Positions 48,299 through 51,855 of a stretch of DNA of 64,000 nt are shown one piece after another. The DNA is from an uncultured Chloroflexia bacterium. GTDB lineage: Bacteria; Chloroflexota; Limnocylindria; Limnocylindrales; CSP1-4. Within the stretch, counting starts at the first letter, position 1. Every line of letters begins with the position of its first letter. The translations under genes were made by a program, and so were the position numbers. The DNA is taken from positions 95,103 to 159,102 of the forward strand of contig CAVRBO010000004.1 in NCBI GenBank assembly GCA_963719285.1. The letters are read 5' to 3'. Below the pieces are notes generated by a model. The model saw only the letters and a program-made list of their open reading frames with translations. It did not search any database and was not told where the DNA came from.

Positions 48299-49189
48299 CT
48301 ACCGGTCGACGGGCAGGTCCAGGCGATCGCCCCACTCGGCCCAGCCGCCGTCGTAGAGCGAGACGTCGTCGTAGCCGAGGAGCGTGAGCACGAACGCGAG
48401 CTTGGCCGCCGCGACGCCGGAGCCGTCGTAGCAGACGAGGCGCCGACCGCGGCTCACGCCGCCCTTGACCAACGACGCGCGGAGGATGTCGGCGGGGCGG
48501 AAGCGGCCGGTGCCGGGCTCGGTCATGGTCGCCACGGGGACGTTGATCGCACCCGGGATGTGGCCGAGGCGTCGGGCGTTGCCTTCCTGGCCGCGGAACT
48601 CGGCCGGGGCGCGACCGTCGAGGAGCATCACGTCCGGCGATCCGATGAGCCCCCGGACATCGGCCGTGGTGAGGCGCAGGCGAGCCGCCGCTCGCGGCGT
48701 GAACACGACGTGGCGGGGTACGGGCTGGGCGTTCGAGATCGGCCGATCCTCGTTCGCCCACGCACCGTAGCCGCCGTCGAGGATCCGGACCGACTCGTGG
48801 CCGTACACCCGCAGGCTCCACCAAACCCGCGACGCGATGAGCGACGCCGTGTCGTCGTAGAGCACGACCGTCGTGCCATCGCCGACGCCGACCCGGGTCA
48901 TGGCCGCGGCCACCTGCTCCGGGCCGGCGAGCAGGTACGGCCGTCCGTCGTCATCGGGATCGGCGAGGTCCGACGACCAGTCGACGTGGAACGCGCCCGG
49001 CACGTGGCCCGCGGCATGGGCCGCGAGCCCGGTCCCATCGGGCCGCCAGCGGACGTCGAGGATCCGCACCTCGGGTCGGTCGAGATTGGCCGCCAGCCAG
49101 TCGGTCGACGCGAGGAGTTCCGGGCGGGGGTAGCCGCTCGTCGAACCGGCCGTGGCGGGGACGCGCAGACGGCGGGGGGCGGATGGCAT
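48299..49189 (-). CDS. Sulfurtransferase (tandem rhodanese, SseA-like)
   Basis: LASTDWL, GHVPGA, LDGG, GHIPGA, LYDGGWAEW. Confidence 0.9.
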   Translation of the reverse strand: MPSAPRRLRVPATAGSTSGYPRPELLASTDWLAANLDRPEVRILDVRWRPDGTGLAAHAAGHVPGAFHVDWSSDLADPDDDGRPYLLAGPEQVAAAMTRVGVGDGTTVVLYDDTASLIASRVWWSLRVYGHESVRILDGGYGAWANEDRPISNAQPVPRHVVFTPRAAARLRLTTADVRGLIGSPDVMLLDGRAPAEFRGQEGNARRLGHIPGAINVPVATMTEPGTGRFRPADILRASLVKGGVSRGRRLVCYDGSGVAAAKLAFVLTLLGYDDVSLYDGGWAEWGDRLDLPVDR

Positions 49190-49209
49190 CGTCGATATCA
49201 TACGGAGCC

Positions 49210-50448
49210 GTGGTCTCCCCCTTCCTGCCGGACGACGCGCTGCTCTCGGCGGTGCGCGAAGCGCTGCCCGCGACCGGCGCCGGGATCTACCTCAACACCG
49301 GCACATCCGGTCCGCTTCCACGAGAGACCGCGCGGGCGATGGCCGACCTGGCCGAGATCGAGCTGACCCGCGGTCGCGCCTCATACGACGACTACATCGC
49401 GACGGTCCAGCGGATGGACGAGGCGCGTGCGGCCGTGGCCGCGATCCTCACGGCGGACGTGGACACGGTCGCCCTCACCTACTCGACGACCGACGGGATG
49501 AACATCGCCGCGCTCGGGCTCGACTGGCAGCCGGGTGACCGCGTCGTGACCTCATCGCTCGAGCATGTCGGCGGGCTCGCACCGCTCCAGATCCTGCGTG
49601 ATCGGCGGGGCGTGGACGTGTCGCTGGTCGAGATCGGCCGGGGCGGCGACGACGAGCGGACGCTGGCGGCGTTCGATTCGGCGATCACGCCGGGGACCCG
49701 GCTCGTGGCGATCTCCCATGTCGCCTGGTCCACCGGCGCGTGCCTGCCGGTCCGGGCGATCGCCGACCTGGCCCATGCCCGTGGCGCACTCGTTCTCGTG
49801 GACGGCGCTCAGGCCGCGGGAACCATCCCGGTCGATGTCACGGCGCTCGGTGCGGACGCCTACGCGATCCCCGCTCAGAAGTGGCTGCTCGGCCCGGAGG
49901 GGATGGGCGCCCTGTGGGTCGCCGCGTCGGCGATGGACCGGATCGCGCCCACGGTGGCCGGCTATTTCGCGTTCGATGCGCCCGGTATCCGGCCCCCGTT
50001 CCGCCTCTTCCCGGATGCCCGCCGGTTCGAGGCGGGCAGCCGTCACCAGCCGTCCGTGCTCGGGTTCGCGCGGAGCTGCGGCTGGCTCGCGATGCACGTC
50101 GGGCTCGAGTTCGTGTACCGGCGCGCGTCGGCGCTGTCGGCGCACCTCGCGGACGCGCTCGCCGCGACTCCCGGAGTCGAGCTCGTCACGCCACGCGATC
50201 ACCTCGCGACCCTGGTCACGTTCCGGATCGAGGGGTGGCCTGCCGAGGACGCCCTCGACGAGCTCGGCCGGCGGACATTCACGATCGCCCGGGTCATCCC
50301 GGAGACGGACTGGCTCCGCTGCAGCGTGGGGTTCTTCAATACCGAGGCCGAGCTGGACCGGATCGTCGCGACGGTCGCCGAGCTGGCGCGCCACACGCCG
50401 GAGACCCTGCCGCGTCGCCCGGCCATCGCGATCCTCGGCGAAGGCTGA
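49210..50448 (+). CDS. Aminotransferase class V PLP enzyme (cysteine desulfurase/lyase-like)
   Basis: YLNTGTSGP, EH, SHVAWSTG, VDGAQAAG, QKWLLGPEG, FFNTEAE. Confidence 0.9.
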   Translation: MVSPFLPDDALLSAVREALPATGAGIYLNTGTSGPLPRETARAMADLAEIELTRGRASYDDYIATVQRMDEARAAVAAILTADVDTVALTYSTTDGMNIAALGLDWQPGDRVVTSSLEHVGGLAPLQILRDRRGVDVSLVEIGRGGDDERTLAAFDSAITPGTRLVAISHVAWSTGACLPVRAIADLAHARGALVLVDGAQAAGTIPVDVTALGADAYAIPAQKWLLGPEGMGALWVAASAMDRIAPTVAGYFAFDAPGIRPPFRLFPDARRFEAGSRHQPSVLGFARSCGWLAMHVGLEFVYRRASALSAHLADALAATPGVELVTPRDHLATLVTFRIEGWPAEDALDELGRRTFTIARVIPETDWLRCSVGFFNTEAELDRIVATVAELARHTPETLPRRPAIAILGEG

Positions 50449-51075: not shown

Positions 51076-51360
51076 GTGCCCCAGGAAGTCCACCACGTCG
51101 CTCTTCCGAAGCTGTACGGGCAGCCCGCCTACGCGAGGCCGCCCCGCCCGGTCGAGGACACCCCGCGCCCGTTCGATCCGGACGAGCTGCCGCTGACGGT
51201 CGAGATGACCGAGGAAGAGCGGATGGAGGCCGAGGCCCTGCCCGGCCAGCGCTACACGACCGGCGGCGCCGAGCCCCCGATCAACGGCCACGACGGCTCG
51301 CTCAGCCCGCGCCCGCTCCGCCTCAAGAAGATCGCCGCGCGCCTGCTCAAGGGCGAGTAG
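51076..51360 (+). CDS. Hypothetical protein
   Basis: GGAGG SD before GTG 51076; HVALPKLYGQPAYARPPR...PFDPDELPL. Confidence 0.65.
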   Translation: MPQEVHHVALPKLYGQPAYARPPRPVEDTPRPFDPDELPLTVEMTEEERMEAEALPGQRYTTGGAEPPINGHDGSLSPRPLRLKKIAARLLKGE

Positions 51361-51430
51361 CTCCCACCCCTCCACGGACATCGGCCTCGGCAGGTTGTGC
51401 GCGCACGCCCGGCTCGCGGGAGCCGGAGGA

Positions 51431-51508
51431 TGGTAGGGGAGGGTGGACTCGAACCACCGACTTCCGAGGTATAAGCTCGGCGCCTCTGACCGACTGGGCT
51501 ACTCCCCC
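51431..51508 (-). tRNA. tRNA-Ile (anticodon UAU)
   Basis: GGGGGAG/CTCCCCT acceptor stem, A73, encoded CCA, anticodon arm CCGAG-CTTATAC-CTCGG, T arm GGTGG-TTCGAGT-CCACC. Confidence 0.9.
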
Positions 51509-51561
51509 ATCCGACGGTCAGTGTATGCCTGCCCTCCACCCGTTCGCCCGAAGGAGGCGCC

Positions 51562-51855
51562 GTGGGCCCGCCCGTTGCCGCCGGGATCGCCACGCTCGCG
51601 GCGGCCGTCGGCCTGCTGGTCGCGTGGCACGCGGCCACCCATGGCGGCACCGCGTTCCGGGATCGGCGTGAGTGGCTCGTGGGCGGGCCGATGGTCTTCA
51701 GCGGCGTCGGGTTCATCGTCGTGGGCGCGATCGTCCTGCCGGGCGTCCCGATCGCCGGCGTGCTGATCGCCGGCTGGGGACTCATCGAGATCGCGATGGT
51801 CGCGATCCTTGCGATGCGGTCCCGGCGCTCCGATCGGTCGAAGCCGGGGCGCTGA
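51562..51855 (+). CDS. Small membrane protein
   Basis: AAGGAGG SD before GTG; three hydrophobic segments. Confidence 0.7.
   Translation: MGPPVAAGIATLAAAVGLLVAWHAATHGGTAFRDRREWLVGGPMVFSGVGFIVVGAIVLPGVPIAGVLIAGWGLIEIAMVAILAMRSRRSDRSKPGR

Follow-up and report, generated by a model that had tools for sequence, protein, structure and literature searches.

How does a bacterium read the isoleucine codon AUA with a tRNA whose anticodon is UAU, and how does it then avoid misreading AUG? The enzyme TilS is regarded as essential and almost universal among bacteria. The gene that raises this question lies in the window, the whole 64-kb stretch of DNA analysed here (G000:C4:95103-159102), which is part of a 3.4-Mb assembly from the order Limnocylindrales (71% GC, 90% complete). 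A first-pass annotation had noticed a tRNA-Ile(UAU) gene in it and proposed that this may be a lineage-level alternative for AUA decoding.

Genomes and sources

Over the part compared, the 16S gene of G000 shares 96% identity with two records labelled Ca. Limnocylindrales and 88-90% with records labelled Ca. Limnocylindrus. The order comprises family f1, to which G000 belongs, and family f2, whose genomes measure 1.0-1.4 Mb; families f3 to f5 belong to other orders of the class, called sisters below. The class sample contains 121 genomes, 42 from the order and 79 from other orders. All are incomplete assemblies and kin are not independent, and because of this incompleteness the absence of tilS and of tRNA-Ile2 is argued from numbers and from synteny. 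Modification enzymes were looked for in five genomes drawn from both groups (G000, G012, G025, G042 and G043). Coverage was 1.2 of 2.24 Mb for the sister G047 and about 0.4 of 1.2 Mb for the f2 genome G025. The unpublished G118 is among the 79 sisters, G436 is among the five f3 16S genes and G383 provides one match in the phylum; no conclusion hinges on any of them.

The tRNA-Ile(UAU) gene

ARAGORN calls a tRNA-Ile(TAT) at 51431-51508 on the minus strand, a strand that the first-pass annotation had not given. It is the sole Rfam match within the window (RF00005, 61.3 bits, E 7.6e-11, against a gathering score of 29). With a cloverleaf above the gathering score and an encoded CCA end (51433-51431, next to discriminator A73 at 51434), the gene belongs to the tRNA family, and the earlier description of an intact tRNA with encoded CCA stands. 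So does the loop, which had been given as CT-TAT-AC with the anticodon at 51471-51473 and which reads C32 U33 U34 A35 U36 A37 C38 on the minus strand (Table 1). A second ARAGORN call, a tRNA-Leu(GAG) at 49596-49691 (+), lies inside the ORF of a C-S lyase, has neither CCA nor an Rfam match, and was rejected as a GC-rich false positive.

Table 1. Coordinates of the features discussed, in window positions
Feature	Coordinates	Strand	Basis
tRNA-Ile(UAU) gene, 78 nt, encoded CCA; likely sole AUA reader here	51431..51508	-	ARAGORN, Rfam 61.3 bits, whole-genome tRNA census
Anticodon U34-A35-U36	51471..51473	-	sequence; same in two soil-run contigs
C38, replacing the A38 needed for t6A37	51469	-	C/U in 42/42 UAU matches of the order; PMC13276492
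5' acceptor strand G1-G7 (G1.U72 wobble, G3-C70, G4-C69)	51502..51508	-	with 3' strand 51441-51435
D-arm variant: C12 and one extra base; D stem 3-bp or bulged	51482..51499	-	minority of relatives
TACACT, -10-like hexamer without consensus -35; position kept across family f1	51520..51525	-	sequence, sigma-70 scan
C-DES-like PLP C-S lyase, adjoins tRNA in family f1; weak lead only	49183..50448	+	locus comparison, structure match

Comparison with relatives supports the fold. In an alignment of 13 tRNAs, namely 12 UAU tRNAs and the elongator tRNA-Met of G000 (kin, hence not independent), 98.1% of cells pair and 11 of the 20 pairs show compensatory change. The minimum free energy of tRNA-Ile(UAU) is no better than that of shuffled sequences (z -1.02), and the D arm is unformed in the predicted structure. 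Among 37 distinct UAU sequences, three show the 78-nt D-arm variant of the window copy. For several of the order's UAU tRNAs (L011, L066-L075, L026), the top pair of the anticodon stem is mismatched, which leaves a 4-bp stem.

The gene had also been credited with a -10 element of its own, TACACT. The hexamer (51525-51520) is indeed present, stops 11 nt 5' of the mature tRNA end and is positionally kept in family f1, where a TAnnnT hexamer ends 5-13 nt upstream at 26 of 38 distinct loci against a background of 1.3%; at the same spot it occurs at none of 12 loci of f2, the other family of the order. A sigma-70 scan of 51300-51700 found no complete promoter, so TACACT is better described as a -10-like hexamer without a consensus -35.

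The anticodon is unchanged in two soil-run contigs, both assembled contigs and not reads, from runs of one study that possibly includes the source sample. X2 record 9 (51178-51529) has the same anticodon and a single differing letter, at 51412, and X3 record 13 (51441-51592) covers the anticodon without any difference. The reported lack of mobile context is borne out as well: the neighbours are chromosomally conserved across f1, and no mobile gene was seen among the five neighbours scanned.

Probable replacement of the TilS route

The tRNA census of G000 comprises one Ile(GAU), one Ile(UAU) and two tRNAs with CAU, one of initiator and the other of elongator type, and this 1:1:2 ratio is the tilS-minus signature of Table S1 in Taniguchi et al. 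(2013, PMC3575796). A search for tilS in G000 gave four weak matches, one of them mnmA and none above 16.8 bits, where the cut-off is 93.6; a sister TilS used as tblastn query found nothing there (best E 0.73). Among 41 genomes of the order, none exceeded the tilS cut-off, and 18 gave weak PP-loop matches of up to 24.4 bits. In the class sample the two groups are mirror images of each other: tilS is found in 0/42 genomes of the order and 77/79 of other orders, and the UAU tRNA pattern in 41/42 and 0/79 of the same genomes, respectively. The two sisters without tilS are apparently G118 and G119, both also without UAU.

The old AUA reader was looked for in the same way. Genomes of the order carry two CAU tRNAs in 35 cases out of 42, one in 2 and three in 5; where there are three, the extra match, judged by its sequence, is a second initiator, has a Thr-like body or is not a tRNA, and in no case is it of Ile2 type. 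An Ile2-type CAU tRNA, defined by G3-C70, C4-G69 and C5-G68 (PMC1635315), is present in 11/12 sister genomes versus 0/12 of the order. One CAU match (G126:C72:4229-4257) has a body resembling tRNA-Thr(CGU) and may be an error, a remnant or an anticodon switch.

Synteny was compared around both genes. In sisters, tRNA-Met, tilS and ftsH follow one another at all eight mapped loci. In the order, ftsH comes directly after tRNA-Met at 17 of 19 loci; one locus gave no match, and in G000 a HerA-like gene is inserted between the two. The ancestral position of tilS, between tRNA-Met and ftsH, has lost the gene. Family f4 has Ile2 between parA and a carboxyl transferase gene, and in G000 these two genes are direct neighbours and the Ile2 slot holds no tRNA. 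The UAU gene lies elsewhere, among neighbours conserved across f1. Since kin are not independent, the exchange of tilS for the UAU tRNA counts as probably a single event at the root of the order.

The proposal of a lineage-level alternative is thus supported for the whole order, in which tilS and tRNA-Ile2(CAU) were not found. The genomic marks of a TilS-independent tRNA-Ile(UAU) system are found together: a TAT anticodon, no detectable tilS or Ile2(CAU), and AUA aligning as isoleucine (see below). When 301 genomes of the phylum were sampled, the short UAU pattern was matched in 52 from outside the order, approximately the rate of reversed controls. ARAGORN, run on 30 of the out-of-order loci, recognised one real Ile(UAU); about six other tRNA-like matches lay outside these 30. 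The real one, at L172 (G360:C60), is a separate Ile(UAU) that stands beside Ile(GAU) in a nine-tRNA array, typical of a mobile tRNA array.

The window copy is very unlikely to be an assembly error, a pseudogene or a redundant mobile tRNA in a genome whose tilS was simply left out of an incomplete bin: G000 is only 90% complete and redundant UAU tRNAs beside tilS are known (PMC3575796), but the soil-run contigs show TAT, 41/42 genomes of the order carry the UAU tRNA with compensatory stem changes, and tilS is missing from an otherwise intact locus.

The meaning of AUA

Of the Ile elements of E. coli, C4-G69 and A38 are missing from the UAU tRNA, and U12-A23 and C29-G41 are additionally missing from the window copy (table in PMC9976931). 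Because these elements are missing, reassignment of AUA to methionine was tested, with AUA masked before alignment. The AUA sites of G000 align with a sister genome (n=16) as I7 V7 L1 D1 M0, with a log10 likelihood ratio of 10.6 for Ile over Met, and those of relatives align with G000 (n=24) as I16 V6 L1 T1 M0, with a ratio of 21.8 for Ile. A less filtered first run on part of the same data (n=21) gave I11 V5 L2 M1 R1 T1. For comparison, AUG falls on Met in about 60% of cases. On these alignments AUA still reads as isoleucine. A code like that of animal mitochondria, in which AUA means methionine and MetRS would charge a tRNA with a Met body, is the least credible of the readings and was rejected: a Met-like acceptor stem and the missing E. 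coli elements speak for it, but AUA aligns like AUC and not like AUG, with Met in 0/16, 0/24 and, less filtered, 1/21 sites, and G3-C70 is described as excluding tRNA-Met (PMC1635315).

AUA is rare in G000, with 127 occurrences among the 523,896 codons of 1,050 long ORFs. In genes matched between G000 and G047, it occurs 28 versus 52 times, or 0.43% versus 0.82% of Ile codons. Judged from comparative sequence analysis, tRNA-Ile(UAU) is very probably the sole Ile-specific AUA reader, replacing the TilS route.

Isoleucyl-tRNA synthetase and charging

In the order and in sister orders alike, IleRS is of type 2 (eukaryote/archaea-type), with DUF5915 and with type-2 structures as best matches. Its C-terminal motif aligns position by position with Gln996, Arg999 and Leu1004 of the yeast enzyme, and the equivalent of Arg999, the arginine that recognises a carbonyl at the wobble position, is kept in the order as in sisters. 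The motif is present in 9/10 aligned frames from both groups, the frame of G011 ending before it, and among these frames no order-specific change was found at the motif. The C terminus is of type 2 and no zinc-binding domain appears among the Pfam matches. As the enzyme is of type 2, the Arg865 site of the Mycoplasma mobile enzyme does not exist here, and an adaptation of that kind was set aside as not applicable.

The presence of a type-2 IleRS with its wobble motif in sisters implies that the enzyme was likely ready for U34 before TilS was lost. We propose that this pre-existing IleRS takes U34 but not C34 and works without t6A37. A tRNA that acquired U34 would thus have become an isoleucine tRNA at once, and TilS would have become dispensable.

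Compared with sisters, the IleRS of the order (G000 L130:883-4365 and relatives) carries two insertions, one of about 39 residues after the WMDWN motif and one of 17 residues before the YQIM segment. The KMSKS motif of the class is degenerate (MHKS-type).

Origin of the UAU tRNA

The acceptor stem of 35 out of 37 distinct UAU sequences is nearest to that of elongator tRNA-Met, and G1.U72 is common to the UAU tRNA and that tRNA-Met in 33/37. In G000, the stem equals that of the genome's own elongator tRNA-Met except at pair 3:70, the Met/Ile discriminator. The resemblance does not extend beyond the acceptor stem: the remaining body is nearest to Met in 16 sequences, Ile2 in 13 and Val in 8. It seems rather likely from these comparisons that the UAU tRNA derived from elongator tRNA-Met, or received its acceptor stem from it, with C3-G70 flipped to the Ile-type G3-C70. 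A remodelled Ile2 is a less likely source, and a recombinant origin is possible. Mutation of Ile2 in place finds no support in the gene position: the neighbours of the UAU gene and those of sister Ile2 genes differ, with the exception of three proteins of one genome that match at 27-36% identity. A tRNA tree built from 57 sites had too little signal to locate the origin.

Position 38 and possible means of avoiding AUG

Position 38, which was left free in the UAU search pattern, is C in 28, U in 14 and A in none of the 42 matches of the order. Of the 13 tRNAs with an NNU anticodon in G000, all but the UAU tRNA have A38, and sister Ile2 tRNAs have A38 in 12/12 distinct sequences. tsaD is present in the five genomes examined, G000 included. 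Bacterial TsaBD has a strict A38 requirement for t6A37 (PMC13276492), and the sequence 36-UAA-38 is reportedly fully conserved in about 3,630 bacterial t6A-substrate tRNAs. Since TsaBD needs A38 and the position is C or U here, t6A37 is predicted to be absent from the UAU tRNA.

The set of wobble modifications is lean and was so before the loss of tilS: mnmG and also TmcA and TmcAL (ac4C34 of tRNA-Met) were each found in none of the five class genomes, which come from both groups, and mnmA and tsaD are present. Because mnmG was not found, U34 probably stays unmodified and xm5U34 is unlikely. In G000, and also in G047, the tRNAs for CGN codons are Arg(GCG), Arg(UCG) and Arg(CCG); Arg(ACG) is missing, and inosine-34 thus seems unused too. 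A PF14437-family deaminase occurs in only two of the five class genomes, G000 included.

Two published observations bear on what such a loop would do. In yeast, t6A37 stabilises wobble-position mismatches, those studied being other than U34.G3 (PMC6212777), and on B. subtilis ribosomes a tRNA-Ile with unmodified U34 prefers AUA and binds AUG weakly (PMC3919564). The codon-anticodon helix of the order may have been deliberately weakened to avoid AUG, a tentative proposal to which we give somewhat less than an even chance. In the proposed sequence of events, elongator tRNA-Met or its acceptor stem would have supplied the UAU tRNA, pair C3-G70 changing to G3-C70; U34 would be unmodified, and C38 would block t6A37. 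Without t6A37, AUA would be read by Watson-Crick pairing, and the U34.G3 wobble on AUG could be weak enough to be outcompeted by tRNA-Met, a step held as tentatively as the weakening itself. That the order solved the AUA/AUG problem wholly within the tRNA, by converting a copy of tRNA-Met (C34U and the 3:70 flip) and abolishing t6A37 through A38, is doubtful as a complete account. If true, it would constitute a modification-free third route beside lysidine and the ribosome of M. mobile, portable to other hosts.

C38 is also present in the elongator tRNA-Met of several Clostridia, an ANN reader, and C32/C38 loops are normal in the Val(UAC) and Leu(UAA) tRNAs of G000; C38 could therefore be inherited or neutral. 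Moreover, Peribacteria keep A38 in 10/12 UAU tRNAs and M. mobile keeps t6A37 and A38, which means that the loss of A38 is not needed for a UAU solution. These facts lend some weight to the alternative that misreading of AUG is simply tolerated: U34 would be intrinsically poor on G, the tRNA scarce and tRNA-Met the better competitor, with C38 as a passenger. This is possible, though we consider it unlikely. B. subtilis survives with a plain G34U mutant of tRNA-Ile1 and low misreading (PMC3919564), AUA is very rare in G000, at about half the frequency of one sister genome in matched genes, and the other UAU systems keep A38. Against tolerance, position 38 is never A in 42/42 matches and yet switches between C and U, which looks like selection against A and not like a frozen base.

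A contribution of the ribosome, as proposed for M. mobile, is less probable still. The candidate is the 16S pair 952:1229 (E. coli numbering), which we take to be a helix-30 pair and which is G-C in the order. Helix 30 contacts tRNA; a literature search on contact between the 952:1229 helix and tRNA found nothing. Position 952 is G in 22/22 genes of the order, with C1229 as compensatory partner, C in 5/5 of f3 and U in 25/26 of f4. The lone f4 exception (G090, L355, G090:C5:71900-73230) is a chimeric 16S, sister-like over the first 400 nt and order-like over the rest, and is an assembly artefact at a contig end. A GTDB-wide scan for G952-C1229 returned at least 115 stretches, 7 of them not 16S, and 23 of 80 titled loci were tested. 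The pair recurs in Peribacteria of the Patescibacteria (L241, L242, L246 and others), where tilS is found in 0/14 genomes tested and a UAU tRNA in 12/14, but also in a third group of nine genomes, mostly labelled Clostridia, with tilS in 9/9 and UAU in 0/9. Furthermore, it is one of 15 order-diagnostic 16S columns in a comparison of eight sequences against eight, and S12 has no order-specific change near the decoding loops among 28 sequences. As tilS-bearing genomes share it, G952-C1229 is not specific and was demoted to a lead.

The neighbouring C-S lyase offered another lead, namely that this C-DES-like enzyme supplies sulfur for thiolation or another modification of U34 that would restrict wobble; we regard this as quite improbable. 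The lyase gene is found at 38/60 UAU loci examined and flanks the tRNA at most f1 loci. At E<=1e-50 it occurs in 40/42 genomes of the order, the 1.1-Mb ones included, versus 0/79 sisters, although a single-query cut-off favours close kin. Its closest structure match is the C-DES of Synechocystis, and the best lyase matches in two sister genomes are orthologs of another paralog. mnmA is present. However, MnmA needs U35, another class-V aminotransferase homolog lies directly upstream of mnmA, the rhodanese adjoining the lyase is present in sister orders too, and a tilS-bearing sister has a 35% homolog whose best match in G000 is this very lyase. In the f2 genome G025, the lyase lies away from the tRNA (contig C3 versus C2) and still beside the DNA ligase gene, so its link to the tRNA may be ordinary synteny. 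The G025 position and the homolog in the tilS-bearing sister led us to demote the enzyme as sulfur donor. A rough base rate comes from 54% of one sister genome, in which 91 of 179 genes were found and about 96 would be expected if all were shared; this suggests that few genes common to both families are missing in that genome.

The lyase (49183-50448, +) forms a divergent pair with a two-domain rhodanese (48299-49201, -). Read with the motif that we take to mark the SufS-type catalytic loop, the lyase has no cysteine there, and the rhodanese has YDGSG in its active-site loop, where a cysteine is presumably expected. The lyase is largely confined to the order and retained even in its 1.1-Mb genomes.

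Relation to known systems

The first-pass annotation had pointed to a minority of bacteria with UAU anticodons, for example M. mobile without tilS. The solution is the same, but the closest known system is that of Bifidobacterium and Neorickettsia, with a type-2 IleRS, and not that of M. mobile. The tilS-less group with tRNA-Ile(UAU) described by Taniguchi et al. (PMC3575796) consists of nine strains of Mycoplasma, Bifidobacterium and Neorickettsia, and Ktedonobacter, the only Chloroflexi entry in the available part of that source, keeps tilS. Like the order, Bifidobacterium adolescentis and angulatum and Neorickettsia have no tilS, one GAU, one UAU and two CAU tRNAs, and a type-2 IleRS. Where those are a few host-associated species, the carriers described here make up an entire sampled order, free-living in soil and freshwater, and their genomes measure 1 to 4 Mb. 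Their IleRS is treated as unusual in the same source; that of the order predates the switch and is also found in tilS-bearing sisters.

In M. mobile, as in the order, a UAU tRNA replaces TilS and Ile2(CAU) and AUA means isoleucine (PMC3575796; PMC1635315). The M. mobile ribosome is described as excluding AUG. M. mobile differs in having a type-1 IleRS with Arg865 in the zinc-binding domain (the Trp905/Arg865 site), a domain that the order lacks; in keeping t6A37 and A38, where the order has C or U at position 38 and A38 in 0/42; and in a tRNA described as closest to Ile(GAU), in contrast to the Met-like acceptor stem found here. The suppressor of a tilS deletion in B. subtilis, tRNA-Ile1 G34U, reads AUA strongly and AUG weakly and has partly lost t6A37 (Kohrer et al. 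2014, PMC3919564). It is a laboratory mutant of tRNA-Ile1, whereas the gene considered here is natural and fixed and its body is not derived from Ile1. Peribacteria share the tilS-less state, the UAU tRNA and the rare 16S pair with the order, but their retention of A38 and their acceptor ends resembling the Ile type differ, and we infer that their UAU system is of independent origin.

No paper tying the order to tilS or to a UAU tRNA was found among the part of the matching literature that was covered; PMC10608941 treats the class without these topics in the part available, and the available parts of PMC13092985 and PMC13752280 are also silent. The system is a variant of the known tilS-less UAU solution, here fixed in a free-living order. 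The basic phenomenon is already known and the surprise is moderate. Nonetheless, published exceptions to TilS are a handful, mostly host-associated, and here the loss is fixed across the sampled order of soil and lake bacteria. The sister orders, which keep the old system, provide a natural before-and-after comparison for the question posed in 2013 of how an unmodified UAU anticodon deals with AUG. The invariant lack of A38 is a lineage-wide exception to the 36-UAA-38 rule and can be probed by changing a single base. For sense-codon reassignment, too, an AUA reader that works without TilS is relevant.

Other tRNA genes of G000

G000 has further duplicated tRNA genes: two near-identical tRNA-Leu(UAA) genes 8 kb apart (C1:681112-689292), two different tRNA-Gln(CUG) genes (C1:53940-55935) and a second tRNA-Cys gene, whose loop has an unusual G38 (C4:416814). 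These additional tRNA-Leu, tRNA-Gln and tRNA-Cys genes could be integration sites or extra copies.
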